Source of the DNA: Nemertoderma westbladi
Lineage: Eukaryota; Animalia; Xenacoelomorpha
Assembly (NCBI GenBank): GCA_032718475.1
Contig: JAUCBJ010000606.1
Span: forward strand, 50,944-114,943
Direction of reading: 5' to 3'
Length of the DNA stretch: 64,000 bases
Part shown: piece after piece, positions 2,557 through 59,719 of the stretch
How positions within the stretch are numbered: the first letter of the stretch is position 1
Layout: each line of letters begins with the position of its first letter
The notes under the pieces: model-generated
Database searches by the model: none
What the model was told of the DNA's origin: nothing
Seen by the model: only the letters and a program-made list of their open reading frames with translations
Translations under genes and position numbers: made by a program

Positions 2557-2615
2557 GTAATATTGGATGTCAACTCAGTGGAAAGACAGCTTAACAATAA
2601 TTATACTTTATACAG

Positions 2616-4846: not shown

Positions 4847-4882
<36 letters not shown>

Positions 4883-10052: not shown

Positions 10053-10351
10053 AATTTTTGTTTGGGTTTCCGGTACCGGTACCGGTATTTTGGTTCCTTG
10101 ATTCAGTTGGTGGTATTCTAAGGCTTATATATTACATCGAGTTTGATTCGCTGCCTACGTTTGCCATGTACATAAGCTGATATTGGATATCAGTTCGTAT
10201 ATTATTTATTATTTGTTATATATTAGCAGCATCATCGCAGTGTTATACTAGATTATGAGCAATGCCCAATAATAGCTGTCAGACCCTCGGAGTTAAGCAG
10301 CTACATACCGGTAGGTATACATAAGTACTATATACTTTCGTTCGCAATTGT

Positions 10352-29700: not shown

Positions 29701-29879
29701 ACTATATATAACTACTATATATAACAAACTGACTATATATAACTACTATATATAACAAACTGACTATATATAACTACTATATATAACAAACTGACTATAT
29801 ATAACTACTATATATAACAAACTGACTATATATAACTACTATATATAACAAACTGACTATATATAACTACTATATATAA
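26736..29879 (+). repeat. 31-bp satellite (CAAACTGACTATATATAACTACTATATATAA)n, about 3.1 kb
   Basis: 31-bp period with TA slippage variants. Confidence 0.98.
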
Positions 29880-30877
29880 GCTTTCCCACTATTAGGGCCA
29901 CCTTTTAAAGGTCCAATGGCCCTTAAATGGCCTTGGGCTTGGAGCAATGGCCCTAATCCTACTACGATGGCCCAAAAGGTACACGTCCTCTTAGGGCAAA
30001 TATGGCCCACCTAGAACAAAATGGCCCAATCTAGGCATAATGGCCCAAAATAAACAATTACAAGGAAATTGCCTTTAGTTCTTATGAATTTAACTTGCAC
30101 CCCTAGCGGTAAACAATAGTATTTATTATCAATTTAATTCTACAGCCAAAAATGCCTTTGCAGATATTTTAAAAAATATATATATCTACAATAACGCATA
30201 CAATTCACTTTTGTGTAATTTCTGATTATGAGTTGTACAATAAGTAGTTTTTAGACGATTTTAAGTCTTTCGTTACAGATAATTATTATCACTTATGACC
30301 GACAGTCAAAAACGCGGAAGTGATTTCTCGAGTTAATGGCGCAAAGTGACCGGAAACACAAAATATGTGTTTTTTAGATGATTTAAAAAATTTATTTATT
30401 TAAATTTCAAACATTAGTGGCGGTGTTTTCTACCCAAAACAATAAACAATACCTTTTCACTAATGGTTAATTTGCGCCACTATTTCGATGTCTCAGCAGT
30501 TTGAATATCGAAACTTGTGCAAACAAAATATGTTAAATTGTAAATAACAATACTGTTTTAATAAATTCTCACTGACAAGCGATTAAAATTTGTGCTTTTT
30601 TAAGAAATAATGTATGAGCGTTCGGTACCTCTAGGAAGGATAACTATTTCGCGTTCTATACACTTCATTATTAACATTTTGTCATTGGTGGGGGGTTAGT
30701 TTATAGACTAGCCTAAATACATCCTACGACCCCTACGAATTCCATCCCCCACCAGTAATTCATATATTGGAGACATAAATGTAGACGTTTTGCCTCTTAC
30801 CCTAATGTAACAATTATCTATAGGCCTATTAAATATAATGTGAATTTTATCCCGTATTAATTAAATCTAATAACTAT

Positions 30878-31598
30878 TTACATCATTGTGTGCAAAGTAG
30901 CACTTTGCAGCGTTATGACCCGAGTTTATTTATGTACCGAGCGAGCGCAGCGAGGGAGGTTTACATCAATAAACAAGGGTCTTTAACGCTGAAAAGTGAC
31001 CTTTGCAAGCAATGATGTATGTAATTTTGTTACATTATGTCAACTTATCAGCGTTCGGTTTGTGAAGAAAGGATTTTATGGTAGCTCATTTATACATTTT
31101 AATCATGTACTATATCGAATATAAGTGAAATTTATTAACAGGTACACAGTATTAATTATACATTTAAATCTATTAAAGATTATTGGAAGTTATCTGCTGC
31201 ATGGTTGTGATAAATCATTAATCCATCTTGACTATAGTCGACTGAAGCAAACTTATTCACCGTCTGTGTCCGTTCAGTTTTACTGAACACTATCGTCACT
31301 TTCTTTGGTTAATTTAGTGTCTTCTATTGGACGTTTCGCCATAATGGATTACAGTACATGTTAAACAATTATTTACATCCAGTAGCTAGTCCCGTCACTG
31401 CAAATTGGATAATAAAGCTGCAATCATTAACATAAATGGAAATAATACATTCTGGAATACGGTAATTGAAGTTGTTTCCATGTCATTGATTACTTTGCAA
31501 CGTTCCGTCCTATAGGCCGCAACGCTGCAAAGTAGTACTTTGCAGCGTTATGAGTAATTCACCAGAACGCTGTTAAGTTGGCATAATGTAACAAAATA
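30878..31598. mobile_element. Non-autonomous element with nested inverted repeats (Crypton-like)
   Basis: Hairpin 30880-31020 centred on CGAGCGAGCGCAGCGAGG; second inverted pair ATTTTGTTACATTATGTCAACTTA (~31024) and TAAGTTGGCATAATGTAACAAAAT (~31575); family call is from resemblance only. Confidence 0.45.
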
Positions 31599-41226: not shown

Positions 41227-41396
41227 TTATGAGTTACCAGTGGAGCACGGGCCTTTTAGTATAAGCCACATATAGAATTATATTCCCTAAATGCCGTGGA
41301 TTTTCAAAATTTTATTTTATTCGAATTAACTTTGTAAAGATTGCTTTGAGTTCTCATTAGTATTGGTTCTATCTATTATGCATCTATCGGTCAAGT

Positions 41397-41483
41397 GGTT
41401 CAGTAGCTCAGTTGGTAGAGCGTTGGAAATTATAAGTGTAGTAGGTATCGAGTTCGAATCCTAGTAAGTGCGAATTATTTTTT
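41397..41483 (+). ncRNA. Degenerate tRNA-like/Pol III cassette in LTR U3 (second copy 57926-58012)
   Basis: A box TAGCTCAGTTGGTAGAGC, B box GAGTTCGAATCC, downstream T run; acceptor and T stems pair poorly. Confidence 0.6.
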
Positions 41484-41680
41484 GTGCAGAATTTCAACTC
41501 ATTTAAATTAACCGCTACAAATTAATTGCATTTGTCTGTACCAATAAGGCTGTAGTTATTTGATTGTAACCAATGTCGTGCAAGTTATATATTAGCTGGA
41601 CCAATAAGCTATCTTTAAAACCTTGTTAGAACCCATAGAACAATCGAGAATTTTCTCGATTGATTGCGGCACAAATTTAG

Positions 41681-41790
41681 TATATAAAGGTGCGATTCGT
41701 TCATTAGTTATCAATCACTACTCAATCTACCTAATACAATCATTTATTCTGTCGTGCTTAGTTTATTCTCAGATTACATTGTATTATAAT
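41681..41790 (+). promoter_or_regulatory. Putative LTR TATA box, initiator and poly(A) signal
   Basis: TATATAAAGG at 41681, TCATTAGTT about 20-28 nt downstream, AATAAA at 41783 followed by a T-rich tract. Confidence 0.55.
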
Positions 41791-43190
41791 TGTATCTTTT
41801 GTAATAAAAGTCAGAAATACTAGTCACATCTCAGCTTTTCTATCTGTTTTACTATGGTTTCGCTACGGTGAACAAACTCAGGGACAGGATGGCCGGCTAG
41901 AGATCGGGCCGCAGCAATGAACGGGAACATCACGGGAATGTAGACGAGAGACAACCCGCAATACCATCTAGTGTTATTCGCCCATCGCCTGAAAGGTTAG
42001 ACAGCGTTCGATCCTTGCTACCTAAGTGTAAGACCAAAAGATCAAAGGTAGACGTAGTGACACGCTGTAAGCCCAAAATTACATCATAGGGACTGTACTG
42101 TCTTGATTCAGGAAAAAACCGCAGTAGACCTTCATATTCCTACGGGGGAGGAGAGAGAGCAGATACTAGTACGCAGATAGGACGTAGGCACACCGGTACA
42201 AGGCATACACATTGGTTAGGGTGCAGCAAACTGTACGCTTAACTCTTGCTAAGTACAGGTGTGTGTGTGACTATTTGCAGTACGACCGTGTCTATTACAT
42301 CAGAACTTGTAGGCTAGGGGGTTGCTGTGTTTTCACCTGAATTGGGATTGTACCGTTCAGGCGGTAGGGCAGTTTACGCTAGGCGCAAATAAATCGAGGC
42401 TATCAGGGATATACTAACATCTACCGTGTCCCGCCAACGCCCTAATAGGAAGTTACCTGGACTACCTGGGTGACTAAAATTCTAGATAGGAGCCAGGATA
42501 GCTATTAGTACCCGTACGCCTACAGTAGTAAACTAACACATCTCTTCTTAGTATCAGGGACCTGGTACCTAAAATTGCCGAATTCTGGGCGTAGTATTAA
42601 CCTTATGCCTGAATTTGAGTCCTGGAAATACGCAAGAGGGGAAGGAACCTTATCATTCGTGAGTATTGGACCTACAAGTTATAAAATTAGAATATTCGTA
42701 AAATGCACACCGTACCCAGTAATTATATATGTGAAGGAGCAAAACTGCTTTTGACCGTTCAGAATTAACACGCGCGCGTTAGAAATTATTTACACCTCAA
42801 AATATATAAAATTAACTTTCGTCCTTACTGCACTTTGCTCGCTAGTTAGACATCTCCAAATCTGCTCTATACCTAACTAGCGTCCCTTTGCCCAACCATA
42901 TAAATCACACCGCGGCAAAGTATACGAGCCCCTTAGTCCGTCAGTGAGTCAGCCTGATTTTAGGATTCGCTGCGCGGGATTTTGTTTTATCGAAGTTTGT
43001 CTGCTCGTAGACTGTTTTCTGCCTCACCGGTTAAAAGAGATCGATACTGCAATATATTCGCTTACTTGGGGTTTACTGTTTTGGTGAGAAGGTCGGATTT
43101 ATGATTTGATTTACAAACTTTACAGTAGGATATTGCAGGTATTGTTACCGTCTCTTCCGATAGTAGGAATAGGCGTATCTCTCCAATTTA

Positions 43191-43219
43191 GTAGGAATAT
43201 GTTTTACTGAACTACGGTT
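43191..43219 (+). promoter_or_regulatory. Putative non-tRNA primer-binding site
   Basis: GTAGGAATATG directly abuts the 5' LTR, lacks TGG, and is the exact reverse complement of LTR 42133-42143 (CATATTCCTAC). Confidence 0.55.
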
Positions 43220-43997
43220 CGGTAGGACTAAAGTTTTTTGAAAAATTTGTATTTTGAGGTAAAAATTTGTATTTGATTAGCTAAGTGCTAATTTTTTGAA
43301 ATAAAATTTGATTTGAACCGCGTGTAAAATATTTTGGAATTGAATACCGGTGTTTAAAAGGGTTTAAATACCATATTGTACCGGTACAAAAATTTTCGTA
43401 AAGTAAAACCTAACTCTTTTGTTTTTCAGGATTCAGAACTCATTTCTAGACTGTAACGGGAGCAAGACCGTGTTTAGCAAGTTTGGGAGATAGATAACTC
43501 AACAACTTTGGTTGGGAAAATCGCGTTTCGTCCGCAACGTTAAAAACGGAAAGGTTCACGTCCGGTTTGTATCTGGGAATCTGTTTTTCTGGAGAATTAT
43601 TGGAGTGGGTGAGTTCGAAAAGTTGCATAAATAAGTTAGGCATTACCGTATTAGTTAAAATTATTGTGGGTTCCACTGTCTCAAGTATTTATGCATTCCG
43701 TACGATTTCTTTGTTCATTGCTGAATTAGTCCGTATTATTGTATTTAATTTACCTTTTGATAACGCATATCGTTATCCGATTTATTTGTTGTAAAATTGG
43801 CCGCTAGGCTAATTTTATTATATACTTATTCCGTGACATTTATTTGCTGTAAAATTGGCCGTTTAGGCTAATTTTATCCATCTGCTATAAAATCGGCCGG
43901 TAGGCTAATTTTATATGACTGTAATTAGTACCGTTTTATACAAATACGGTAAACTCGATACTTTGACACTCACTTTACTTGACTTACAACTACCGAA

Positions 43998-46900
43998 ATG
44001 AGTGACAAACAAGACTATACGAAGAACACACAAACCGACTATGACTCATGTGACGCGGATAAGTCAGCAGCGGAAGAACCACAGGGGAAGACTCGCGAGC
44101 CTACCGAACCTACACCGTGTGCGTCACCAGTACATCCAACGGGAGTACCGGATGCCGTAGTACGAGGCGACGGCAGGACCGAGGACTTTCTAACTGTTCC
44201 GCAACCTAGATATAGGGAAACGGAAATGGTAAGTTCAGCAGGAAGCACAGAAAGTGTGGTTAGAAGCGTCGGAGGATACATGGCGCATATAACCAGGAGC
44301 ATTGGAGAAGGCCAACGCATATTAGACGGGTTGACCGCTCCGATGTCTCGATTCGAGTTCTACACCCTCCAGGTTAGAGTACAGAGTAAAGTATATAAGT
44401 CCGTAGATAATTTAGTTGGCCTACAAGATCTAGCTAGACAGAGACAGGACATGGATACTCAACTTAGAATCCTCGAGAAACTAATGATCACTAGAGAGAA
44501 ACTGATTCAGTTTAAGTCGACGATTAGACAGATACAACAGGAACAAGCGGACCAGTTGTTAGGTGAGTCAGTTTCGGACGAATTATTACAGCCCGAGGAA
44601 GAACAGGAACTGTACCGACTGGATGGACAATTGAAACACCTGACGGATCACTTGCGCATGTGCGGCGAAGACGTCGGGGATTGGGAAACCGTGCCGGAGG
44701 CTACGAGGGAAACTTCGCTCGCACAAATCGAATCAGCACCGGGAATACTGGACCAATCGTTGGTAAGTATTCGTAGCGAAATCTGCGAGGGAAGTATAGT
44801 CACGTCAGAAGTTGCTCGACAACAGCAAGAATTCCACCGACAACGACAAGAAGTGGAGGAACAAGCTCAACTTCTAGTGATGCAGGCAGCAGTAGAAGAA
44901 GAGAAGCTACGCGTTGCGAATATAGCGAGAATCTCTCATCTACAGGAACAAGCTGAATTAGAAGCAGCTGAAGTAGAAAGGTTAGAGCGAGACATTGCCC
45001 GACAAGCGGCAGCGGCAGCGGCCGAGTCAGAGCGACAAGCGGCAGCGGCCGAGTCAGAGCGACAAGCGGCAGCGGCCGAGTCAGAGCGACAAGCGGCAGC
45101 GGCCGAGTCAGAGCGACAAGCGGCAGCGGCAGCGGCGGAATTAGAACGAGACAGGTTAGTTTCGGAAGCACGGGCCGAAATGAAAACACGGCAAATAAAA
45201 GCTCAATCCGCCATACGACAAGCAGAGTTTGAGGCGCAACAACGACAAACGGAACAACGAGAGAAGACAGCTAAACTTCATTTCGAACTTGAGAAGAAGA
45301 CGAGAGAATTAGCGAACGCCGAGGAAGATCTGGATCAAAAGGCCCGCGATCGATCGATGAGATCTCGTGACGGACATGATTTGGACCAGTTAGAGGTAAG
45401 ACATCGCCAAATTCAGGAACGGAAGAAGGAAGGAAGCGTAGGAGCACCCGGACGGGAACGACAATTAGTAAAAGACGTGTGTCAACGATTCCCACAGGTA
45501 ACTCATATGTTTGCACCGGTCACGACTAAGGAACTTATTTCGATTGCTGGTAGCAGCGATATCTCTCCTATCCATGGTGTGACGGAACACAGGTTTGTTA
45601 TTCCGGACAAGTTTACACCGCCAAGAGCAACGTCGTCGCCTATTCCGAAAGTCAAGGTAAGTAACCCACCGATTGCAGATCGTAGTAGTTTATTAGTCGG
45701 ACCTGCACTACTGACGACAAAACAGGTGAGTCCACCTTTGACACCTAAACCCGTTACGCACTACGATTACCCAATGACATTTCGGCCTACAAGGCCTTTG
45801 GATTCAAACGCGGTCGTCCGACCACCAGTTCAGTTTACGTCGCAATCTACGACTTCGAGGAAGACTTGTGAGCCTACCGAACAACGGAGAACAGTGGAGA
45901 CGCGACCATTCAACCAGTTTACATCGCAATCTACGACTTCGAGGAAGACTTGTGAGCCTACCGAACAACGGAGATCAGTGGACGATGTTCCGAAACGAGC
46001 CGTTAGAATTCGAACGACGCAACGGACGCGAGCACGTCGACCACCATATCCAGATGATAGTAGTACTTCAAGCGAATCGGATTACCCGAAACGCGAGGTA
46101 TTTAGAACAGGGGCGGCCGACGAATATAAACGCGAGCGTTCAGACAACTCCTTTGCAGACAATCCTCCACAGAATACACCAACACAGAAGGCGTTACAAC
46201 CAACGAACGCAATTAGTACACAACAGTTCGCCGACATTCTGCGACCAGTTGTTAATAAGTTGGCTCAGATCGAGGAGCGTCTGGAGGAAGTTCAAACCGA
46301 CAGTTCGAGAAATTCCGAATTCGAACACAATAGACACCCGAAGGGACCACAAAGACCGGTACCTTCAAACCCCACATCGTATCAGGGAAAAGCGCCAAGA
46401 AGGGAGAACATCAACCAGACTACCAACCAAGGACGCGAAACTCTGAACGTTGCCGAGGAGATAGCAAAATTCGCAGCCAGACAGGGATTGCCGGTACAAC
46501 AACCACCGAAGTTTTCCGGTAGCTCGAAACACTGGCATACCTTCGTAGACTATATTGAATCCCAGATCGCCGTGTGCGCCTTTACATCACGAGAGAAGTT
46601 CAATTACTTGCTCCAAACGTTGTCAGGAGAACCTAAACGTTTGGCGGAGACTTTCGTCGGTGTACCAGACGCTTTCGAACTAGCGTACGATCGTTTGACT
46701 TCGATATACGGAGGTACAGTGAGTATGGCCAGGTCAGTAATAGAAGAACTCTGTAAGGGAGGGGCTATCACTAAACCCGTCGACTTACTAAAACTGGCCG
46801 ACGAGATTAAGAACGCTATCACTACCTTAAGATCAATTGGACAACTGGATTACGGAAATACCCCGACAGTTTTATTAAAGATAATAGGACGACTCCACCA

Positions 46901-49900
46901 TCGACTTCGTCGGGAGTGGAGGAAGGTCGAATATCAGCGAGAGGAGCGAGGAGGATTCCTAAAATTAGAAGATGTGTACCTTTTAATATCCAGGGAGGCG
47001 GTAGTAGAGACTCGATCTAACTATACCGACCAGCACATCGTGGCAGAAGGGATCACACTGCCATCCTCCAACCGACAAAAACCCCAGACAACATCCACAA
47101 AGACGGCCACTTACGCCACACCGACGGAATCACGACAATTCTCAGACGGTAATAGAGTATCTGCGCCCATTGGAACGAAACAGACGAGACAGCAACTCAG
47201 CGCCGACTTCAACGGCTGCCAATACTGCGAACATTTAGGTAAGCGGTATATTGGTCACAAGTTACGAGGTTGTCGACAATTTCGCGAGTTGAACTCAGAA
47301 GAACGACGGCTGCAGATACGGCCACTGGACTCTTGTTGGCGGTGTACGCGACACGGACACGTCCGTAAGGATTGTCCAAATACCGACACTTGTCCATCCT
47401 GTGGACGCAACCACGACGGTCTGCTCCACACAGACAGCCACACGCCGACGAAACGCTTCGCCAGGGAACACCCGGAAGCAGCAGCGAGATGTGATGCGGC
47501 TTACCGAAAACGGGAATCGAAAACGACTCCGACTTTCGTGACCCATATAGAGGATTGCTTTTCAGAACAATCCGGATCGTCGGACGAAGAATCAGAAGAC
47601 GACGAATATTCAAATGGAGACGAACAACCGTCAATCGCGCTCCTGACCACTGACCAACTGAAGGGATTCAGTGTAATCCCGATTAAAGTTACTGGCACAA
47701 AAGGGAGCAAGAGGATTTACGCGATTCTAGACTCAGCCTCATCTCACAGTTACGTAGATGAAAAGATAGCTGACGTCGTAACAGATCTTAGACAAGGTAA
47801 GCACGTCAGTTATACAGTAAGTAGTATGCACGGCCAGCGTGCAATACCAGTGACACGAGTTAAGTTGGACTTAGACTCTCTTCTTCCAAAATCGCAACAC
47901 AGCGAGAGGGAGAGGTCTTTGTTGCCCTTTAGAGATCTAACCTTTGCGGCCACGAAGGACTTTAGTAACCTACTAGGTCCAGTGCCGGAACAATCTCTGG
48001 AGGACCGTAAGTATTTCAGACACCTTGGTGTACCCGAATGTCCTGTCAATTATAGATCGGTAGCAATGCTGATCGGGACGGACCAATTCAACCTACATCA
48101 GGTGTGGGAAACCAGACCATCGGCAGTTGTAGCAGGAAACGCATACGCCTGCAGAACGCCGATAGGGTGGTATACTCGAGCGCCTGTGCGCACACTAGAC
48201 GTAAGTGACGAGGAAGACGACGTACAGAGTACATGTAGTTTATTGACTACAAACTCAATTCATTCCTTTTCACACGACGTGAACCATACTACGCTACAGT
48301 CGACAAAACATCACAGACGTGTAACTAGTATGATAAGTCACAAGGAGCAGCTAACCCACAAGGTGAGTTTAGAAATTGGGGGGAAGATGAGTCAGCTAGA
48401 GATTCCATCGACGACAGATGATAGGCTTGCGAGTCTACCTACCCCAATAACTTCAACAGTGCCCATCGATATCGACGATGACGCGTTGAAAATTCATCAG
48501 TTGGAACAAGCCGCCTTGGACAAAGAATTAACGGAGAAGACTATCAGGTGGTTAGAACAAGATACAGCTGAACCTGGTAGCTACGACCCTTGTATGTCGG
48601 AACAGGAGAAACAATCTTTAAAGATCATGGAGGATACTATCCGACAGACGGAGGACGGACATTACGAGGTGGGGATGTTATGGCGTAGCCAAAGTCCTAA
48701 ACTTATAAATAACTACCCACTGGCTTTAAGACGTCTACACTCAATCCGACAACGTCTATTAAAGGACGAGAAAGCCCATCTGCAGTATAACACTCAGATG
48801 GAGACGTATTTGACGAAGGGATACGCTATCCGAATGACTAACCCGGAGCGAGTGACAGACCAGACGTACTACTTGCCACATCACTATGTGAGACATCCCG
48901 ACAAACCAGATAAAGTACGCGTAGTCAATGACTGTGCGGCTCTGTTTGAGGGAATGTCCCTCAATAGTGAATTGATGGATGGACCGAACATGAATAACTA
49001 TCTTATGGGGGTGATTATGCGCTTCCGTCAGCGTCAAGTAGCCTTTACTTGCGACGTAGAAGCGATGTTTCACCAAGTGAAAGCGTTAGAGCGAGACAGA
49101 GACAGTTTGCGGTTTCTCTGGTATCCGGAAGGGGACTTAAGTCTACCACCAGCGACTTACCAAATGCAAGTTCGCGTTTTCGGTGCCAGAGACAGCCCAA
49201 ATTGTACGATGTACGCCTTGAAGCAAGCCGCTAGAGATCAGAAACATCTGTATGACCCAGAGATAATTAGAATTGTAGAACGTGACTTTTACGTTGATGA
49301 CGGTTTACAAAGTTGCGACACAGTAGAACGTGCTACAACAGTAGCACATCAATTACGGGACTGCTTGGCGGGCGGAGGTTTTAACCTCACCAAATTCGCC
49401 TCAAACAGTGCCGAATTAGTTGACTCATTCGGAACTACTGAGCGTGGAGGTGGTGATATAGACCTAGAGTTCGAACCACTACCGACGACTAAGGTGTTGG
49501 GGCTCTTTTGGGACCCAAACACAGACAACTTTCGAGTGAAGGTGAGACTGGACAGTCAAGGAGACACACTGACCAAGAGATCATGCTTGTCAAAGTTGAG
49601 CCGATTGTTCGATCCGTTAGGATTCATCAGTCCAGTAATACTGCAAGCTCGCATTTATATGCGCAGTATATGGAAGGATGGACTAACGTGGGACGAGCCG
49701 ATCTCATCAGATCAAGTGGACTTATGGAAGACCTGGGAGGCGGAATTGTCTTCGTTAGAGGATTATTCCATACCCAGGGTTTACTTTCCATTACAGAGTA
49801 CATTTCCTGACAACTTGGAACTACACTGTTTTTCTGACGCCAGTGACAACGGGTTTGGTGTGGCAGCGTATTTGCGCAGACAAGTAGAATCGGACGAGTT

Positions 49901-52658
49901 CGATGTTTCGCTCATTACTTCCAAGGCTAAGACCATGCCTACTAAGTATATGACGACACCACGAGCCGAGCTACAAGCCGCGACCCTGTCAACCACCATC
50001 GTGAACCTCATACAGACAGAACTACAGTCGAGTTTACAGATATTTTATTGGACTGACGCGACGTTGGTTTTATTTTACATAAACAACGACACACTCGAAT
50101 TCAAGACATTCGTAGCTAACCGTCGCGCAGAGATTCTAGACCGTTCGATAAAAGAGGATTGGCGACATTGTCCCGGACCACAAAACCCAGCTGATATTGC
50201 GTCGCGAGGAATGATGCCTGAAGAATTCTGTAAACCGGAAAACAAAGAGTTTTGGCAACACGGACCCCAGTTCCTGCAGAAATCGACACAAGATTGGCCT
50301 CCGTTATACGACAACAAGTCCAACACCATTCCTAAGGACGCCGAAATCAAGAAACCAAAAAAGGGGAAGACAAAGAAAAAGACGACGGCGGCAAAACTCA
50401 AGAAAAAACCGAAGGCGAAATGGAAGGATATAACTTCAAAGGTCAAGAGAGGAAGACTTGCGAGCCTTTCTACACCAGACATATCGCCAGACGGTCGACC
50501 AGACACGTTACCAGACAGTCAACCAGACATTTTGCCAGACATATCACAAAATGTTCCACCAGACGTTAGTAACGCACTGACAAACAGTAAAGCCGCAGTT
50601 TCCCTATTGGAGCGGCCTTCTATTGACAAACAACCAGATACGTTACCAGACGTATCGCCAGACACACTACTAGACAGTCGACTAGACACTAGTAATGTAT
50701 TGACTAACAATAAAGCCGCAGTTTCCCTATTGGAGCGGCCTTGTATTGACAAACTACCAATTTTGACACACTTGAGCAACCATAAGCATGGTGAAACCTC
50801 ATGTATTGCAGATGTGGGTAGTACCTACGCTAATGTAAATACAGGTGTTACTTTGCGCTCAAGAGACATACCGAACTTACAACCTGTGGTGAGACCTGGG
50901 ATTAATGTCGGCAGAAAATTAAGTTTACCAAAACCTGCTGACCCCATAGAGTTCAAACCACCATTAGCGATCGACTTACAAAGTACCGACAATCAAGGTA
51001 AGAAGACAAAGAAGGACAAATTACTTGTAGACCCGGACGGATCAACAGTCAACAAGGGAATACTTACCGGCGGACCCGTGGGCCCTTCTAGTAATTCAAA
51101 ACCTTCCAAGTTCTCCATTGACTTACCTGATGACGTCACAAATACTTACGTCGACCGTATTGTAAACCTAACAGATTCTTGGTCAAACGCTTGCCGAAAA
51201 TTAGCGTGGATTGTACGTTTTGTACAATACGTTAAAGGCAAACGTGACTTCACACGTCGACTTACATTGGCTGAGATTGACAGGTGTGAGATCAAATTAA
51301 TTCGCCATTACCAACTGAGATATTTCGCGCGCGAATTCACATCTATAAGTCAAGGTCAACCAATCAAGTCGTCACCGATACTGAGTTGGAGTCCGATAAT
51401 TTATAATGGCTTAATTTGTCATAAATCTCGGCTTCAAAACATTGACTTTAACACGAACTTTAGGTACCCAATAATAATACCGCAACACCACGAACTACAA
51501 CGTGCAATGATACTGGACGCACATTTACATCTGAAACACGCAGGAAGACACCACTGTCTTTCCTACTTACGTACTAGATTTGTATTAATTAGACCCAGTA
51601 AAGCATTAAGTTCCGTGACACGTACGTGTATTATTTGTAAAAAGGTACATTCTAGAATAGGTACCCAAGAAATGAGTGAACTACCACAAGCACGACTTCA
51701 AGCATTCAGACCACCTTTTACAGAGACTGGAATTGATTGCTTTGGTCCCATACATACTAAACGTGGACGTATACTAGTAAAACGCTGGGGACTGATTTTC
51801 ACATGTATGTCCAGTAGGGCAGTTCACATTGAACGTGTGATGGATCTTTCCACCAACGCGTTTATACTAGCACTGCGGCGATTTATCGCTAGACGCGGAC
51901 TAGTAAAATGCTTGTACTCAGACCAAGGGACAAACTTTGTTGGTGCTCGGAATGAGATTGCTAGAGCCTTTAAGAAATTAGATCATGATCAAATCTCAAA
52001 CGAACTGCAACCTCACAAGATTGTTTGGAAGTTCAATCCTCCAGATAGTCCTTGGAGAGGCGGAGTCTGGGAGAGACTGATTAGATCTATAAAGACAGCA
52101 ATGGCAAAGGTCATTCCAGTAAACCACATATTAACAGACGACCAACTGACAACATTGTTTGTTGAAATCGAGGCAATACTAAATACTAGACCAATAGTAT
52201 TAGTACCCGATAACAAACAATCCCAGTTTGCTTTGACACCGGCACACCTGCTAATGCAGGCACCGACGACATTAACGCCGATTTCTATTCCAATAGAAAG
52301 CGACAGCTATGGTAGAAAAGCGTGGAAAATCACGCAACTACTAGCTAACAAATTCTGGGAAATATGGCAAAACCATTATTTGCCCTCTATTTCTGCCAGA
52401 ACAAACTGGTACAATAACACCCGCGCATTAAAGCCGGGAGATCACGTGCTGTTGGCGGAAGTGAATCTAAAAAGACGCTTCTGGATAACAGGTGTCATTT
52501 TAGCCACACATCCATCTATGGATGGAGTGACAAGAACTGTGACAGTACGGACAATTGACGGTCGTACAGTAGACAGACCGACTCAACGTCTCGTACTTCT
52601 TGAAGAGACTCGTAACGAGTCTGGAGACTACAAATCTCCACCTAATACTAGTAAATAA
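43998..52658 (+). CDS. BEL/Pao Gag-Pol polyprotein (coiled coil, Gag, 3 Zn knuckles, protease, RT, RNase H, integrase)
   Basis: PPKFSG..HW; CQYC..H..C, CWRCTRHGHVRKDC, CPSCGRNHDGLLH; protease ILDSAS; RT YLPHH, DVEAMFHQV, FYVDD; RNase H FSDAS, PRAEL, WTDA, NPADIASRG; integrase HH-CC, GIDCFGP, SDQGTNF, GGVWERL; 2886 aa uninterrupted. Confidence 0.97.
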   Translation: MSDKQDYTKNTQTDYDSCDADKSAAEEPQGKTREPTEPTPCASPVHPTGVPDAVVRGDGRTEDFLTVPQPRYRETEMVSSAGSTESVVRSVGGYMAHITRSIGEGQRILDGLTAPMSRFEFYTLQVRVQSKVYKSVDNLVGLQDLARQRQDMDTQLRILEKLMITREKLIQFKSTIRQIQQEQADQLLGESVSDELLQPEEEQELYRLDGQLKHLTDHLRMCGEDVGDWETVPEATRETSLAQIESAPGILDQSLVSIRSEICEGSIVTSEVARQQQEFHRQRQEVEEQAQLLVMQAAVEEEKLRVANIARISHLQEQAELEAAEVERLERDIARQAAAAAAESERQAAAAESERQAAAAESERQAAAAESERQAAAAAAELERDRLVSEARAEMKTRQIKAQSAIRQAEFEAQQRQTEQREKTAKLHFELEKKTRELANAEEDLDQKARDRSMRSRDGHDLDQLEVRHRQIQERKKEGSVGAPGRERQLVKDVCQRFPQVTHMFAPVTTKELISIAGSSDISPIHGVTEHRFVIPDKFTPPRATSSPIPKVKVSNPPIADRSSLLVGPALLTTKQVSPPLTPKPVTHYDYPMTFRPTRPLDSNAVVRPPVQFTSQSTTSRKTCEPTEQRRTVETRPFNQFTSQSTTSRKTCEPTEQRRSVDDVPKRAVRIRTTQRTRARRPPYPDDSSTSSESDYPKREVFRTGAADEYKRERSDNSFADNPPQNTPTQKALQPTNAISTQQFADILRPVVNKLAQIEERLEEVQTDSSRNSEFEHNRHPKGPQRPVPSNPTSYQGKAPRRENINQTTNQGRETLNVAEEIAKFAARQGLPVQQPPKFSGSSKHWHTFVDYIESQIAVCAFTSREKFNYLLQTLSGEPKRLAETFVGVPDAFELAYDRLTSIYGGTVSMARSVIEELCKGGAITKPVDLLKLADEIKNAITTLRSIGQLDYGNTPTVLLKIIGRLHHRLRREWRKVEYQREERGGFLKLEDVYLLISREAVVETRSNYTDQHIVAEGITLPSSNRQKPQTTSTKTATYATPTESRQFSDGNRVSAPIGTKQTRQQLSADFNGCQYCEHLGKRYIGHKLRGCRQFRELNSEERRLQIRPLDSCWRCTRHGHVRKDCPNTDTCPSCGRNHDGLLHTDSHTPTKRFAREHPEAAARCDAAYRKRESKTTPTFVTHIEDCFSEQSGSSDEESEDDEYSNGDEQPSIALLTTDQLKGFSVIPIKVTGTKGSKRIYAILDSASSHSYVDEKIADVVTDLRQGKHVSYTVSSMHGQRAIPVTRVKLDLDSLLPKSQHSERERSLLPFRDLTFAATKDFSNLLGPVPEQSLEDRKYFRHLGVPECPVNYRSVAMLIGTDQFNLHQVWETRPSAVVAGNAYACRTPIGWYTRAPVRTLDVSDEEDDVQSTCSLLTTNSIHSFSHDVNHTTLQSTKHHRRVTSMISHKEQLTHKVSLEIGGKMSQLEIPSTTDDRLASLPTPITSTVPIDIDDDALKIHQLEQAALDKELTEKTIRWLEQDTAEPGSYDPCMSEQEKQSLKIMEDTIRQTEDGHYEVGMLWRSQSPKLINNYPLALRRLHSIRQRLLKDEKAHLQYNTQMETYLTKGYAIRMTNPERVTDQTYYLPHHYVRHPDKPDKVRVVNDCAALFEGMSLNSELMDGPNMNNYLMGVIMRFRQRQVAFTCDVEAMFHQVKALERDRDSLRFLWYPEGDLSLPPATYQMQVRVFGARDSPNCTMYALKQAARDQKHLYDPEIIRIVERDFYVDDGLQSCDTVERATTVAHQLRDCLAGGGFNLTKFASNSAELVDSFGTTERGGGDIDLEFEPLPTTKVLGLFWDPNTDNFRVKVRLDSQGDTLTKRSCLSKLSRLFDPLGFISPVILQARIYMRSIWKDGLTWDEPISSDQVDLWKTWEAELSSLEDYSIPRVYFPLQSTFPDNLELHCFSDASDNGFGVAAYLRRQVESDEFDVSLITSKAKTMPTKYMTTPRAELQAATLSTTIVNLIQTELQSSLQIFYWTDATLVLFYINNDTLEFKTFVANRRAEILDRSIKEDWRHCPGPQNPADIASRGMMPEEFCKPENKEFWQHGPQFLQKSTQDWPPLYDNKSNTIPKDAEIKKPKKGKTKKKTTAAKLKKKPKAKWKDITSKVKRGRLASLSTPDISPDGRPDTLPDSQPDILPDISQNVPPDVSNALTNSKAAVSLLERPSIDKQPDTLPDVSPDTLLDSRLDTSNVLTNNKAAVSLLERPCIDKLPILTHLSNHKHGETSCIADVGSTYANVNTGVTLRSRDIPNLQPVVRPGINVGRKLSLPKPADPIEFKPPLAIDLQSTDNQGKKTKKDKLLVDPDGSTVNKGILTGGPVGPSSNSKPSKFSIDLPDDVTNTYVDRIVNLTDSWSNACRKLAWIVRFVQYVKGKRDFTRRLTLAEIDRCEIKLIRHYQLRYFAREFTSISQGQPIKSSPILSWSPIIYNGLICHKSRLQNIDFNTNFRYPIIIPQHHELQRAMILDAHLHLKHAGRHHCLSYLRTRFVLIRPSKALSSVTRTCIICKKVHSRIGTQEMSELPQARLQAFRPPFTETGIDCFGPIHTKRGRILVKRWGLIFTCMSSRAVHIERVMDLSTNAFILALRRFIARRGLVKCLYSDQGTNFVGARNEIARAFKKLDHDQISNELQPHKIVWKFNPPDSPWRGGVWERLIRSIKTAMAKVIPVNHILTDDQLTTLFVEIEAILNTRPIVLVPDNKQSQFALTPAHLLMQAPTTLTPISIPIESDSYGRKAWKITQLLANKFWEIWQNHYLPSISARTNWYNNTRALKPGDHVLLAEVNLKRRFWITGVILATHPSMDGVTRTVTVRTIDGRTVDRPTQRLVLLEETRNESGDYKSPPNTSK

Positions 52659-53316
52659 TTAGGAGTTTACAAATAGATTCCCACGTACCTGTACACCGTA
52701 GTAAGGACAGCGGTAGAATTCCATTGTCTTTATATGTGAACATTGAGGGTAGTACCCTTATGTGTCACATAGGAGCGGGATTTGTAGGTATAAGAAATGG
52801 AATTCTACTTGGAACTCACAATATTGAGACATTTTCGAAATTTTAGACAATCCATTTGGATTTGAAAAATTTTTAAAATTTTCTCCAGTGAATAGATTTC
52901 AGGGTACAGTCGGGTGGAACTTAAAATTAGAGAAACAAGAGAGGAAGACTTGCGAGCCTTTCTTAAAATTTTAATTAAATTTTACACGGTCTTGTTTCAA
53001 TAAGTTACGTCAAAATAGACTCCCCTATATTTATTACTAATTCTTGACTGCTTATTTTCTGATAATAGTTTGGGATCAAAAAGTGAGTATTTTAGACTCA
53101 CGGCCAGTTTAGCCCAAATTCGTTTTTACTTCGGCAAAAAATTTTAGATAAGAAGCAGCGTGTCATTAAAGAAACCCTAGATCTTAGGCTATGGGTAGGA
53201 GGTTAGAGCGTTGTCGAGCCCAAAGGGCAGACGAAACTCTCACGTCTCCTCACAACTAACTACAAACTCTGTTGTATTCCCTCTAGTAGTAATGATTATG
53301 TAACTACACCCTAATT

Positions 53317-56300
53317 ATGGAGAAAGGGATACAAGGAGAGCCGAGATGGGGATATGATATCCAAGAGGAGGCAGCAGCGCCATTCGAAAGATTTGGAGCC
53401 AAGGATTATACTATATTTGGTATAAAAGAATTATCGGAAAGTACAGCGAAACTCGCGAGAACTAAATATGACTCGAATGTATTAAAGAGAAGGCAAAACG
53501 CATTAAACGAAAGAATCGAAAGTTTGCGCCAAACCTTCAACGAACTTTACCCGTACGATGCTTTGTGTGACACGGGAGACATTAGCGAAGACCCCGATAC
53601 TGAAATTAGTCGTTTGTATCATACCATGCAATACCTAAAGGCGCACGAACCTATGCCTGCGGTACGCGATGAATTCGATGGAATGCATCTTTACAGACGA
53701 ACTCGAGGGGACGATAGAGAAACCAAGGAAGCATTTTCAGTTTATAAACTTTATTATCAATGCGGTTCTTGTATGCGCGAACAACGAAATGCGATTCCGA
53801 TGCGTTTGAATAAGGAAAATCCCGAACCGATATTGGCGAGGTGTTCGAATCATCAACAACTACGCTACCAGGAAGGAGGGTATCCTTTATCGAATCCATA
53901 TCATTCATTTGCTATGACCGGACCAAAGGCGGGAGAAACTGTCATTTACCCACCTAAGGTTGTTGAACCCGATGTATTTGAACTTACGCTGGACGAGGCG
54001 AATCAGTCAACCCGCGAAAAGAAAGAAGCTCTTAGCCTATACAGAGCCTACAAGGCTTTCGAGAAAGGTGAGATGGAAGAATGGGGTGGAAGACTCGCGA
54101 GCCTACCTTGCCATTGGACGTCACACGATCAAACTTCAGCTAAGGAGATGACACCGGAAGTTTTCGAGAGCATAAACTTCGCTCAAAACGTTATTCAGAG
54201 ACTACAGATTGCATCCCCGGAGAGGCCAAGAGAAATGCAACCGTATAGTACTTCAGCTACGAAACCATTGAGTACGACACTCAATTTCCCTATTAGTATA
54301 CCAGTCCGACAGGATACGACGTACGAAATACCCATCGTGGATCATCCAGAAATCATTTCAAACTTGGAGTTTCTTCCTGCAGTTGTTTTCAGCGATATGA
54401 GTAAGATATATGATTTGCGTAGACATATTACTCAAAAGGTCGTGAACAACGTTCCACCTCATATCCAAGATTTTAAGGAACTGGATAGAGCTGGTGCCGA
54501 CATAGCTCCGAGTAATCTGAAAGGATATCTAACCAAGACGATTCGTTTATGGATTGGAATCGGAACCTTCGAGTCGGATACAGGTATTGCCGCAGATTGG
54601 CGAGGTAAGGTTATTCGTTTCGATGAGGATAAGGATATAGAGAAGATTTGGCAACCTTCGGAAGAATTGTTGGATGAATGGACTAGGACGTTTAGATCGT
54701 TTCAGGAAAACGGTTATATGTTTTACGATAACGAGGGCGGCAGTCATCAGCAGAGTTTGACTTCTAAGACTATACAGATTAGAGCGGCGGACGGAGTCCT
54801 GCACGTTTTCAGTAGACAGAGGAGCGACAAACGAATGCCGATACCTCCAGCGAATACAAAGCGACACCATCTTATAACCGATATAGTAAAGAAGATGGAC
54901 CAAGCTTGTAATATTGACGCTAGAATGCTACCGAAGATGGTAAGAAACATGATTTTAGATAAAACTGTTGTAAAGGTTGGATCAGGAGTAAGGGAGGATT
55001 TAATTAGCGACTTCGCCGGCATGACGGACAGCGATGACCGACTACCGACACCATACGTCGACACTCGACCTCTTATTCTGTGGTCTATAGAACAGGGATA
55101 TTTTCGTGAGTATAATACTCAGAAGACTGGAACTGGATACATTTCCTACCTGTTATTCAATTGGGATTATAAGGAAGGTAAAAGAAACAAGTATATTGAA
55201 ACTTATGGAGAAGGTGATACTCCAGATATGAGTGAGTTTGAATCACAGCTTAAATGGAGAGGATGCGTGTATTGGGCTATTACGTCACCTCCAAGAGCGG
55301 TCTTACAATATTATTTAGCGATAGAGTCGTCAGTGAATGTTTGCCTAATCGCCGACATTGTGTCTCGGACTCTCAAAAGACATCCACTTTGTCTCGGAGA
55401 AGATCATACGTTCTACATGGAAGGGAGAATTCGTACCGACGTGTTTAGACGATTCCTTGAACCCTTCTACAACTCCGACGCTCAGTGTAATGCCTTTACT
55501 CGAGCAGGATTTAGTATATTTCGAGACGTGTATCTTCGCTGTGCGGGATCTCTTATCGAAAGACCATCTATGTTTACATTGTTACCCTATGAAGGAGAAC
55601 GTATTGTGGAAATTACGGATGAATCACGGCAGACGCGCGCGCCTATCGGTCACCCCGGTGATGATTTCAACGTAACTACTACGATCGCCGACGATCCTTT
55701 AGAGGAACTTCTTGAGATAGAAAGGAACCTCCCGAAGAAATCTCAGACGGAGATTCGACAACTTGAAGCAACAGATGCTATAGTTTGTATACAACCTTCA
55801 GAAACCTACCAACCTATAGACCCAGATGATTACGATTATAGTGTGGGAGGAAGCGCTCGACCGATTGGAGATCTTATATACGAACGAGTGTGGTACCCTG
55901 CTAATACGATGTGTAGTAAATGTGGCGTCGCTGGACATCATATGGCAAAGTGCAGTGGAAAGCACATTACTACGACTCAGCTAATCTGTGGATGGTGTGG
56001 GGATCAAGGGTCTCATACCTTTTATACTTGCTGGAGATTTATGGCTCAATGTACTTACTGCAATATAAAGGGACATCGAGCATCTGAATGCCAACTGAGA
56101 GACATACCTTATGAACACGAATCTGTAAAACTTGTGAGGAAGTTATTTGATGAGTGGGAAGATTTAGCCGACGAACATGTATCGGCACAGAGAAGACGGT
56201 TTCCGATGAGAGCGCATCTCGGATTTTGGGCGGTAAATCCCCAGACGATGATGTCGGAAGGATATATCTCCGCTATGCCCCAATATGACGAACTTATCGA

Positions 56301-57042
56301 GGTTGTTGATATTTTGCCCCACGACAGCGGATTCCGAGTGGTGCGCGAGTATCTGTTACAGATTCACCCGGATAACAAAAACACGTGGAATTTTCAGAAA
56401 GTCGTAAATCGTATCACGTATGGTGAATTTGATCGTTTCCGAACCGAAAAGCGGAATAAAGGAGCTTGGTTAACCGTCGCATGGGCGTACCGAGCCGCGT
56501 TTTACCATAAACGTATACGAGCGAGCGTATTCGAGGAAGAAGAGGTCCTAGAGGCGACGAATATACCAGCCACTCCGGTTGCGCCGTCTGCACGTCACCC
56601 TCGGGAGGACGGGCAGGGAAGGATCATACGGGTCCAAAAGGTGGGCCAACAATTGAAGAAAATAATTAATGTAGAAGAACGCAAGGGAGTTGAGCCGACT
56701 ATTCGAGTTACTCGGGATACGGTATCACTTCCAAGAGAACCGGTAGGAGGATCGGGACATACACCAGCTGATCAACAGGGGGCGCAAGCTACTCTTGGGT
56801 CTGCGTCGTCCGCTTCTCACGCGTTCCCAGACGTTCTACCAACTGTAGCGACAACTGATCGGTCACGAGGAATTGGTCGAGGTTTTGGGATGCCAAATAG
56901 ACGAATTTGCGAGGAAATAGTTGCACCGTCTCTCAACGTCCCAAGTAAACCAGTGACTCGCCCCATTAGTCCCATATCGCGAGCAAAGTCACCTGTGCGC
57001 AGTTTTCGAGGACGCGGCAGGGCTCGATCAACTAAGCGATAA
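53317..57042 (+). CDS. Accessory ORF: DEDDy-like 3'-5' exonuclease domain plus three CCHC zinc knuckles
   Basis: ExoI-like FYDNEG...IQI, ExoII-like ILDKTVVKVGSGVREDL, YVDTRPL, ExoIII-like W..SPP...LQYYLAIE (about 54700-55330); CSKCGVAGHHMAKC, CGWCGDQGSHTFYTC, CTYCNIKGHRASEC (55911-56092); intact 1241 aa inside the LTRs. Confidence 0.75.
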   Translation: MEKGIQGEPRWGYDIQEEAAAPFERFGAKDYTIFGIKELSESTAKLARTKYDSNVLKRRQNALNERIESLRQTFNELYPYDALCDTGDISEDPDTEISRLYHTMQYLKAHEPMPAVRDEFDGMHLYRRTRGDDRETKEAFSVYKLYYQCGSCMREQRNAIPMRLNKENPEPILARCSNHQQLRYQEGGYPLSNPYHSFAMTGPKAGETVIYPPKVVEPDVFELTLDEANQSTREKKEALSLYRAYKAFEKGEMEEWGGRLASLPCHWTSHDQTSAKEMTPEVFESINFAQNVIQRLQIASPERPREMQPYSTSATKPLSTTLNFPISIPVRQDTTYEIPIVDHPEIISNLEFLPAVVFSDMSKIYDLRRHITQKVVNNVPPHIQDFKELDRAGADIAPSNLKGYLTKTIRLWIGIGTFESDTGIAADWRGKVIRFDEDKDIEKIWQPSEELLDEWTRTFRSFQENGYMFYDNEGGSHQQSLTSKTIQIRAADGVLHVFSRQRSDKRMPIPPANTKRHHLITDIVKKMDQACNIDARMLPKMVRNMILDKTVVKVGSGVREDLISDFAGMTDSDDRLPTPYVDTRPLILWSIEQGYFREYNTQKTGTGYISYLLFNWDYKEGKRNKYIETYGEGDTPDMSEFESQLKWRGCVYWAITSPPRAVLQYYLAIESSVNVCLIADIVSRTLKRHPLCLGEDHTFYMEGRIRTDVFRRFLEPFYNSDAQCNAFTRAGFSIFRDVYLRCAGSLIERPSMFTLLPYEGERIVEITDESRQTRAPIGHPGDDFNVTTTIADDPLEELLEIERNLPKKSQTEIRQLEATDAIVCIQPSETYQPIDPDDYDYSVGGSARPIGDLIYERVWYPANTMCSKCGVAGHHMAKCSGKHITTTQLICGWCGDQGSHTFYTCWRFMAQCTYCNIKGHRASECQLRDIPYEHESVKLVRKLFDEWEDLADEHVSAQRRRFPMRAHLGFWAVNPQTMMSEGYISAMPQYDELIEVVDILPHDSGFRVVREYLLQIHPDNKNTWNFQKVVNRITYGEFDRFRTEKRNKGAWLTVAWAYRAAFYHKRIRASVFEEEEVLEATNIPATPVAPSARHPREDGQGRIIRVQKVGQQLKKIINVEERKGVEPTIRVTRDTVSLPREPVGGSGHTPADQQGAQATLGSASSASHAFPDVLPTVATTDRSRGIGRGFGMPNRRICEEIVAPSLNVPSKPVTRPISPISRAKSPVRSFRGRGRARSTKR

Positions 57043-57799
57043 AAGGGAGGGCAAGGGTGGACGGAAGACTCGTGAGCCTTTCTTATGATTTGTGATTTAT
57101 TTGAATTATATGTTTTATATTTAGAAAGAAATTTAGAAAGTTTATATTTAGAAGGAACTTATATTTGAAAGATTTATGTTTCATATTTGAGATGCAAAGG
57201 TTTATATTATTCTAAACTTATGCAGTTTATATTTATATTTAAGTAAAGACTTATATTTAGTAAAACTTATATTTAGTAAGAATTTATATTTACGTGATTA
57301 TTTCGAACTTATGCAATTTATATTATTCCAAACTTATGCAATTTGTATTGTTCCGAATACTATATTTTATAAGCAGTATTTGTATTTACAGTGTAAAAGA
57401 GAAAGTTTTATAGACAGAAAAATTTGTGCTCAGAAAGACTCATATTTGTAATTATTCCAAACCTATGCAATCTACATTTAGGTACGAAAGTATTTGTAAT
57501 TACTTGAGATGCAATATTATTTGTATTTGTAATTGTTTGAATTTATGCAATATCTGAGATGCAATAGATTTATATTGGTGAATTTAATTTAGATTTATAT
57601 TGTACTTACTTAGTAAAGCCTTAAATACGTAAAGTTTGAATTTGTAATTATTTTGTATCGAATCATTACGTAGAAAGGAAGTATTGTTTGAAACTTAATA
57701 GTAAATATGTAAGTACGCCCTAAGTATTCTATAGTTTGATTGATTATTGGTGAAAACCGTATATTTTATGCACGATAATATCCTGTTTTCATGGAGCGG

Positions 57800-59719
57800 T
57801 ATAGAATTATATTCCCTAAATGCCGTGGATTTTCAAAATTTTATTTTATTCGAATTAACTTTGTAAAGATTGCTTTGAGTTCTCATTAGTATTGGTTCTA
57901 TCTATTATGCATCTATCGGTCAAGTGGTTCAGTAGCTCAGTTGGTAGAGCGTTGGAAATTATAAGTGTAGTAGGTATCGAGTTCGAATCCTAGTAAGTGC
58001 GAATTATTTTTTGTGCAGAATTTCAACTCATTTAAATTAACCGCTACAAATTAATTGCATTTGTCTGTACCAATAAGGCTGTAGTTATTTGATTGTAACC
58101 AATGTCGTGCAAGTTATATATTAGCTGGACCAATAAGCTATCTTTAAAACCTTGTTAGAACCCATAGAACAATCGAGAATTTTCTCGATTGATTGCGGCA
58201 CAAATTTAGTATATAAAGGTGCGATTCGTTCATTAGTTATCAATCACTACTCAATCTACCTAATACAATCATTTATTCTGTCGTGCTTAGTTTATTCTCA
58301 GATTACATTGTATTATAATTGTATCTTTTGTAATAAAAGTCAGAAATACTAGTCACATCTCAGCTTTTCTATCTGTTTTACTATGGTTTCGCTACGGTGA
58401 ACAAACTCAGGGACAGGATGGCCGGCTAGAGATCGGGCCGCAGCAATGAACGGGAACATCACGGGAATGTAGACGAGAGACAACCCGCAATACCATCTAG
58501 TGTTATTCGCCCATCGCCTGAAAGGTTAGACAGCGTTCGATCCTTGCTACCTAAGTGTAAGACCAAAAGATCAAAGGTAGACGTAGTGACACGCTGTAAG
58601 CCCAAAATTACATCATAGGGACTGTACTGTCTTGATTCAGGAAAAAACCGCAGTAGACCTTCATATTCCTACGGGGGAGGAGAGAGAGCAGATACTAGTA
58701 CGCAGATAGGACGTAGGCACACCGGTACAAGGCATACACATTGGTTAGGGTGCAGCAAACTGTACGCTTAACTCTTGCTAAGTACAGGTGTGTGTGTGAC
58801 TATTTGCAGTACGACCGTGTCTATTACATCAGAACTTGTAGGCTAGGGGGTTGCTGTGTTTTCACCTGAATTGGGATTGTACCGTTCAGGCGGTAGGGCA
58901 GTTTACGCTAGGCGCAAATAAATCGAGGCTATCAGGGATATACTAACATCTACCGTGTCCCGCCAACGCCCTAATAGGAAGTTACCTGGACTACCTGGGT
59001 GACTAAAATTCTAGATAGGAGCCAGGATAGCTATTAGTACCCGTACGCCTACAGTAGTAAACTAACACATCTCTTCTTAGTATCAGGGACCTGGTACCTA
59101 AAATTGCCGAATTCTGGGCGTAGTATTAACCTTATGCCTGAATTTGAGTCCTGGAAATACGCAAGAGGGGAAGGAACCTTATCATTCGTGAGTATTGGAC
59201 CTACAAGTTATAAAATTAGAATATTCGTAAAATGCACACCGTACCCAGTAATTATATATGTGAAGGAGCAAAACTGCTTTTGACCGTTCAGAATTAACAC
59301 GCGCGCGTTAGAAATTATTTACACCTCAAAATATATAAAATTAACTTTCGTCCTTACTGCACTTTGCTCGCTAGTTAGACATCTCCAAATCTGCTCTATA
59401 CCTAACTAGCGTCCCTTTGCCCAACCATATAAATCACACCGCGGCAAAGTATACGAGCCCCTTAGTCCGTCAGTGAGTCAGCCTGATTTTAGGATTCGCT
59501 GCGCGGGATTTTGTTTTATCGAAGTTTGTCTGCTCGTAGACTGTTTTCTGCCTCACCGGTTAAAAGAGATCGATACTGCAATATATTCGCTTACTTGGGG
59601 TTTACTGTTTTGGTGAGAAGGTCGGATTTATGATTTGATTTACAAACTTTACAGTAGGATATTGCAGGTATTGTTACCGTCTCTTCCGATAGTAGGAATA
59701 GGCGTATCTCTCCAATTTA
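57800..59719 (+). repeat. 3' LTR (1920 bp)
   Basis: Direct repeat of 41271-43190; preceded by a short purine-rich GGAGCGG; followed by TSD CCACA. Confidence 0.96.

Follow-up and report, generated by a model that had tools for sequence, protein, structure and literature searches.

Retroviral packaging and dimer signals, such as the DIS and SL3 of HIV-1 and the UGCG loop of RSV, are stable hairpins that cluster in the 5' leader and are mostly lost on splicing. Repeated motifs have also been described in transposons. The VANC target motifs of Arabidopsis VANDAL DNA transposons are non-palindromic, 8-9 nt long and arranged in tandem arrays in non-coding DNA, and their binding has been shown (PMC5735166). 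Sirevirus RM boxes are palindromic and CpG-containing with a CGG-CCG core, and cluster in the long terminal repeats (LTRs) and upstream of an extra open reading frame (ORF) (PMC2829016). The bdelloid LTR elements Juno and Vesta carry, past pol, an ORF3 with an RNase D-like DEDDy exonuclease which has no known role, and the source passages describe no repeated cis-motif for them (PMC5408684). Here we report a 20-nt near-palindrome dispersed through an 18.4-kb BEL/Pao LTR retrotransposon in a 64,000-nt stretch of Nemertoderma westbladi DNA (GenBank assembly GCA_032718475.1, contig JAUCBJ010000606.1, positions 50,944 to 114,943; hereafter the window, with positions counted from its first letter). 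This cis-element is real, specific to its family and tiled along its carrier in an unusual way; the carrier also has an apparently spliced gene for an exonuclease-like protein with zinc knuckles, and the motif may act at the level of RNA or of DNA.

The motif shares with the retroviral signals a self-complementary core and a YGYG loop whose exposed G residues zinc knuckles could read; unlike them, it has dispersed copies with none in the leader, folds weakly and persists in the spliced form. In logic the VANC system is the closest. VANC motifs are also short, family-specific and present in many copies in a transposon with an accessory protein, with a copy number that varies among members, whereas the motif here is 20 nt long and occurs as single dispersed copies, mostly in ORFs, of an LTR retrotransposon (PMC5735166). 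Like the RM boxes, it is palindromic, CpG-containing and multi-copy, in an LTR-retrotransposon group with an extra ORF, but it avoids the LTRs, has another core and occurs as separate copies across gag, pol and the accessory ORF (PMC2829016). The accessory gene, ORF2, resembles Juno and Vesta ORF3 in lying downstream of pol and having an exonuclease-like domain, and differs in its BEL/Pao carrier, its length (~1,240 aa), its three CCHC knuckles, its long N-terminal part and its apparently spliced access (PMC5408684). A literature search of incomplete coverage found neither an LTR element described with a palindrome tiled evenly across its coding regions nor an exonuclease ORF described in BEL/Pao. 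An evenly tiled cis-signal in coding sequence would show one way in which very long retroelements could stay active, through RNA protection or compaction or through open chromatin, and an exonuclease-like accessory gene without a known role comes here with a sharply defined repeated candidate target.

The preliminary description of this locus reported a 17-nt quasi-palindrome present at least eight times. The copies stand where they were reported; the extent had to be mended, as 20 nt are conserved (GGAAGACT-YGYG-AGCCTWYC), and 55628 was added as a probable further copy. The 20-mer consists of two 8-nt half-sites, fitting GRWAGRCT, around a YGYG spacer, with position 6 being A in one half-site and G in the other. 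GGAAGACTYGYGAGCCT is found exactly at seven positions (44086, 45859, 45943, 50451, 52943, 54088 and 57063), and an inverted copy at 48423-48439 differs from it by two mismatches. The copies are:

44086..44105, forward strand: motif copy 1, spacer CGCG, in the Gag N-terminal region
45859..45878, forward strand: motif copy 2, spacer TGTG, in an unaligned region of Gag, part of an 84-bp duplication
45943..45962, forward strand: motif copy 3, twin of copy 2
48420..48439, reverse strand: motif copy 4, inverted, in the protease-reverse transcriptase linker; the sense-strand spacer reads TGCG
50451..50470, forward strand: motif copy 5, spacer TGCG, in the RNase H-integrase insert, with 28 nt in common with copy 6
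52943..52962, forward strand: motif copy 6, spacer TGCG, in the non-coding spacer between the ORFs, position 9 polymorphic (T/C) in the family, with adjoining indels
54088..54107, forward strand: motif copy 7, spacer CGCG, in ORF2
55628..55647, forward strand: probable ninth copy, spacer CGCG, pair 8/13 changed from T-A to G-C, in ORF2 between the exonuclease and the knuckles
57063..57082, forward strand: motif copy 8, spacer CGTG, in the 3' untranslated region (UTR), 21 nt past the ORF2 stop

Seven of the nine copies lie inside ORFs, and there is only one tandem pair. The local 84-bp duplication that holds this pair (45859/45943) and the 28 identical nt common to 50444 and 52936, both noted earlier, are real. 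In 100 dinucleotide shuffles of the window, matches averaged 0.01, and no shuffle had as many as eight. Because the pattern was picked from the data themselves, de novo controls were added to the shuffles. On scanning the window with a position weight matrix (PWM), the eight copies scored 29.8-34.7 bits and 55628 scored 21.5 bits; below this nothing exceeded 10.7 bits except reverse readings of the copies, and no copy was seen in the LTRs or outside the element, in agreement with the preliminary description. A site as good as 55628-55647 occurs in just 2 of 1500 Markov-2 null regions, and for this reason it is read as a probable ninth, degenerate copy.

The motif was absent from 80 other BEL/Pao loci, where the best PWM score was 14.7 bits. 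In a de novo dispersed-repeat statistic (20-mer, 3 mismatches), 78 of 79 loci gave at most two clusters and one gave three, compared with four in a size-matched 7-kb slice of the window and seven overall; an earlier run gave at most three clusters in all 77 loci run. Three long loci were skipped in the 77-locus run, while in the 79-locus run L036 was dropped (same contig as L035) and L012 and L035 were trimmed to one element. With a looser 16-mer setting the size-matched contrast was just four clusters versus three. The PWM scan and the de novo statistic together rule out a general BEL/Pao feature. As the comparison loci are distant families from other hosts, this control shows that the motif is not general and says nothing of its loss in close kin. 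Two single matches in viral contigs and nine in 596 Gb of prokaryote genomes are, by estimate, about what chance would give. A known RNA family was rejected, with nothing found in Rfam and no tRNA, as was an internal polypurine tract, the motif being unlike the tract before the 3' LTR.

Synonymous-codon resampling of both ORFs (2000 runs) produced no match in 1897 runs, one in 101 and two in 2, whereas six are observed. The coding copies are read in different frames (GKTREP/RKTCEP versus GRLASL), as had been claimed. Because the motif occupies two reading frames and non-coding sites, and because resampling never exceeded two matches, the earlier proposal of constraint at the nucleotide level is supported; protein constraint fails to explain the motif. 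A protein-level repeat is ruled out by the resampling, and RL[AV]SL[PS] and KT[RC]EP[TF] occur in 0 of 120 homologs. All five gag-pol copies lie in stretches to which at most 11% of these 120 homologs align, namely the N-terminus of Gag, the linker from protease to RT and the insert between RNase H and integrase, and the chance of such unconserved placement is ~0.025 (four independent sites). The independent copies are separated by gaps of 1.1-3.0 kb, with a coefficient of variation of 0.27 (p 0.004), and the even spacing persists when placement is restricted to permissive stretches (p 0.001); counting the ninth copy, the gaps are 1.1-2.5 kb (p 0.001). These spacing and placement tests are post hoc. 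Nowhere along the element, LTRs included, is there a gap of more than 3 kb.

The carrier is an intact, very young BEL/Pao LTR retrotransposon of 18.4 kb at 41271-59719, with the following parts:

41271..43190, forward strand: 5' LTR, 1920 bp, TA...TA, with no motif copy
43998..52658, forward strand: gag-pol ORF of BEL/Pao type, ~2,890 aa, with Pao-type domains
53317..57042, forward strand: accessory ORF2, ~1,240 aa, apparently reached by splicing to an acceptor at 53286
57800..59719, forward strand: 3' LTR, with no motif copy

The two LTRs are of the same length and mutually identical, and the target-site duplication is the 5-bp CCACA. The single gag-pol ORF contains Peptidase_A17, DUF1759, DUF5641 and Integrase_H2C2, in the order protease, reverse transcriptase (RT), RNase H, integrase. 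It is longer than its nearest relatives (1,600-2,200 aa), which are 43-44% identical over the RT region. The LTR ends are TA...TA, not TG...CA, and the carrier is an atypical BEL/Pao member whose membership rests on its proteins. Most of the element is present in four sequencing runs of one organism (A) and a part of it in one run of another (B); contigs from three of the A runs and from the B run cover it with many variants. None of the runs that contain the element is recorded as RNA. Low-depth contigs in runs X1, X3 and X4 that are ~81-88% identical along gag-pol, ORF2 and the LTR represent a sister family in the same organism. The observed/expected CpG ratio of gag-pol is 1.14, compared with a median of 0.70 and a maximum of 1.04 in 70 comparison BEL/Pao ORFs (those of the 80 loci with an ORF of at least 500 codons, all from other hosts) and 0.68 in the rest of the window. 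A ratio this high could mean that the element has long escaped methylation or has recently come from another host.

Two GT..AG joints with normal splice contexts, found in run X3 only, connect the leader to ORF2. The introns and the recognisable domains of ORF2 are:

41996..43429, forward strand: intron 1 of the spliced ORF2 form, GT..AG joint in X3 with splice-site context
43609..53286, forward strand: intron 2, GT..AG joint in X3, which takes out gag-pol and motif copies 1-6
54703..55365, forward strand: DEDDy-like 3'-5' exonuclease domain of ORF2, acidic residues D478, E480, D568 and E677
55912..56094, forward strand: three CCHC zinc knuckles of ORF2, recognised from sequence, with a weak Pfam zf-CCHC match (E 0.004), common to the homolog P0124

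From these joints we infer a doubly spliced accessory-ORF form like those of complex retroviruses; X3, recorded as DNA with a question mark, would then be RNA. The spliced form retains three motif copies (54088, 55628 and 57063), and the ORF2 ATG is preceded by two out-of-frame ATGs. Word-based searches gave no relative of ORF2, and neither did one made with a pol query. A full HMMER scan gave two matches, one to the knuckles only and one to a true homolog, P0124, with the same domain order. Residues 455-720 reach an Atlas score of 0.93 to 3'-5' exonuclease clusters, with 24 of 30 matches being PF01612. The Exo I, II and III motifs of ORF2 (D478-x-E480, D568 and Y673-x3-E677) align with D-x-E, D and Y-x3-D in P0124, and Exo I and II line up with those of bacterial exonucleases in hhalign (E 0.005, probability 6.8). 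Pfam gave no exonuclease match on ORF2, and a 10-sequence exonuclease hidden Markov model built here did not place it above shuffles. ORF2 looks like an exonuclease of the DEDDy family that has diverged but retains its acidic residues, with three CCHC knuckles behind it; the preliminary description had overlooked the exonuclease-like domain. Nearer its N-terminus (53470-53850, residues ~60-185), a helix-loop-helix-like stretch and a C-x2-C...C-x2-H motif were seen by eye, neither of them backed by a database match. The helix-loop-helix look of residues 60-118 has no Pfam, PDB or fold match, and no DNA-binding domain was detected in ORF2.

In most pairs of copies the flanks are unrelated. Short tracts held in common comprise the 28 nt of 50444/52936, 24 nt of 44086/45859 (including 4 nt past the motif) and the 84-bp unit. 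Segmental duplication of long flanks was not found, three weak left-flank scores (p 0.01-0.02) arising among 54 tests. In X4 a joint with a summed depth of 9835 leads from 57567, through five other letters, into the copy 52943 sequence; X3 has a loose end that matches this joint, and contigs of X1 and X4 that run through the 52943 region continue from 52976 as 3' UTR-like sequence. These two joints, seen separately, suggest that in other family members the 3' UTR received a 34-nt tract from the spacer; such members appear to carry an extra copy there. New copies would arise by RT template switching that copies tracts of 20-35 nt, which would also hold most copies in one orientation, and they would persist at sites that fill a gap and at which the protein can accommodate them. 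Within 52863-53042 a single substitution, the T to C change at motif position 9, is listed at 1% or more, and seven indel rows fall at 52942, 52964, 52965, 53012 and 53013, none within the 20-mer.

We tentatively favour a sense-RNA signal read by a zinc-knuckle protein of the element (ORF2 or Gag, as candidate binder), a reading judged from sequence to have somewhat less than an even chance; a site for the CCHC accessory protein was among the earlier proposals. What decides for it is that G stands opposite every variable C/T position and that in one pair both partners have changed. In the self-complementary arrangement of the sense strand, positions 9, 11 and 19 are all opposite G, giving G.U, and the ninth copy alters both sides of pair 8/13 (T-A to G-C). 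Pairs 1/20, 4/17, 5/16 and 7/14 are invariant, pair 2/19 is G-C or G.U in seven of eight copies, and pair 6/15 is A.C in seven and G.U in one. The spacer is YGYG in 8/8 independent copies, G10 and G12 being G in all of them, including the inverted one in sense reading. Zinc knuckles bind exposed G in YGYG/GNG loops of retroviral RNA. If a CGCG ancestor is assumed, the core has undergone five changes, each of them C to T (post hoc, one-sided p 0.018 against a share of 45%); there is no element-wide C to T bias (133 C to T and 162 G to A in X1). The lack of a copy in the LTR promoter also favours RNA, as do the recognisable ORF2 domains (exonuclease-like and three knuckles), which act on single-stranded nucleic acid. 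The T/C substitution at position 9 among family members, the placement and spacing of the copies and the copy gain in other members count for this reading too. On this reading the element protein, whether exonuclease-like ORF2 or Gag, would coat the ~16.6-kb transcript every 1-2.5 kb, and ORF2 made from the spliced message would act in trans. The signal may take the form of a weak stem, capped by a YGYG loop and holding A.C or G.U at 6/15, or alternatively of a duplex between two copies, stabilised by the protein in either case. Least certain is what the coat might do; it may protect or compact the very long RNA, whether to evade RNA surveillance by the host or to help assemble particles.

Several observations weigh against an RNA signal. 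Sense hairpins are weak (-0.4 to -2.0 kcal/mol, or -4.2 for the inverted copy), a hairpin is predicted in context for only one or two of the eight copies, and the fold z-scores of seven copies range from +1.0 to -1.7, none clearly better than shuffles, while the antisense strand folds better in 7/8. Pair 3/18 is mismatched in half of the eight copies, and the A.C at 6/15 counts on the same side. The double change at 8/13 is a single event that extends a CG run and could be produced by slippage, and the inverted copy has two mismatches as inverted DNA versus four as a direct copy. In 52863-53042 the flanks too show no substitutions, and greater conservation of the motif than of its flanks does not emerge there; as these flanks are also indel-prone A/T runs, selection on the motif is not proven. 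A more specific proposal is that the spliced exonuclease-knuckle protein reads a 20-nt tag, planted by the element in each tolerant linker of its RNA, and shields, routes or edits the transcripts of its own family alone against host small-RNA or decay pathways. This is unlikely; if true, it would be a self-recognition system of an animal retrotransposon, an RNA-level counterpart of plant VANC anti-silencing.

The copies could instead be double-stranded DNA sites, each with two 8-bp half-sites flanking a CpG-rich spacer of 4 bp, for a dimeric protein of the host or the element, which would keep the element open against methylation in the VANC/VANDAL manner, with C/T variation being CpG decay in an unread spacer. 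We consider this reading, which the preliminary description does not weigh, a serious rival, though a less probable one. All 14 half-sites of the seven independent main copies fit GRWAGRCT without any need to pair, no stable RNA fold is seen, and one copy is inverted with its G-rich upstream flank kept in the inverted sense. A span of element never exceeding 3 kb between copies would also suit such a role, yet there is no copy in the LTR promoter or the 5' leader. Similarly, the gag-pol CpG ratio lies above all 70 comparison ORFs and the rest of the window, but those elements stem from other hosts, CpG retention shows no gradient with distance from the motif, and transitions in CpG context are still enriched (12 of 31 transitions among 40 listed family variants, p 0.03). 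On the sense strand not one change is from G to A, and the helix-loop-helix look of ORF2 is by eye only, with no match in the searches described above. A classical packaging or dimer-initiation signal, as suggested in the preliminary description, did not withstand the analysis: there is no copy in the 5' leader (43191-43997), three copies are kept after splicing, and no sense fold is better than shuffles, leaving no stable hairpin. One feature of dimer signals is present, namely a self-complementary core with a predicted intermolecular duplex of -8 to -30 kcal/mol.

These copy-to-copy duplexes, far stronger than the hairpins, underlie a reading in which RNA copies of the motif pair directly. 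Every 2 kb they would hold two packaged genomes, or remote segments of a single one, in register, and so aid template switching across breaks in a very long genome. C to U changes would preserve G.U pairs in the duplex and the inverted copy pairs best with all others. However, pairing has no need of the A.C at 6/15, which hardly varies, or of the invariant letters in the arms, and both point to a protein reader; TGTG copies self-pair weakly (-8.2), and the spliced form retains three copies although it should not be dimerised; we regard stitching as decidedly unlikely. Finally, the palindrome may have no function, RT pausing and switching template there so that the motif copies itself and survives only where proteins tolerate it. 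The shared short flanks (28 nt, 24 nt and the 84-bp unit) and the 34-nt tract apparently copied to the 3' UTR show recent copying, survival alone accounts for the linker placement, and conservation above the flanks at the substitution level was not shown in 52863-53042. Set against this, the same 20 nt are kept in most pairs despite unrelated flanks, spacing is evener than random even within permissive stretches (p 0.001), variation is limited to a few positions and no comparable repeat occurs in the 79 other BEL/Pao loci. Neutrality of this kind seems very improbable, and would provide a clean case of a motif spread by template switching.

Some further features of the element and the window were noted. 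The 11 nt after the 5' LTR (43191-43201) lack the TGG expected at this place and are exactly complementary to 42133-42143 within the LTR. Such an 11-nt LTR match arises in 54 of 81,567 resampled LTRs; there is further pairing on both sides, and an energy-based control was borderline. A stretch after the LTR that is complementary to the LTR resembles Tf1-type self-priming, and the literature search found no report of self-priming in BEL/Pao. As the inferred start near 41710 is upstream of 42133-42143, self-priming would need a second start or a cut. Five other marine BEL/Pao loci (L012, L016, L026, L037 and L044) are also without TGG after the 5' LTR, and non-standard priming may be wider in the BEL/Pao group. 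A tRNA-like stretch in the LTR at 41398-41475, with A-box- and B-box-like sequences, lies upstream of a TATA candidate; ARAGORN and Rfam made no call. Elsewhere in the window are pieces of a host Roc-COR gene (2561-4921), a CARD-domain ORF (10325-11419) and an antisense long interspersed element (LINE) of PHD-endonuclease-RT type (5174-8530). Large tandem arrays, with 30-bp and 31/33-bp units, are found at 12055-15000 and 26600-31000.

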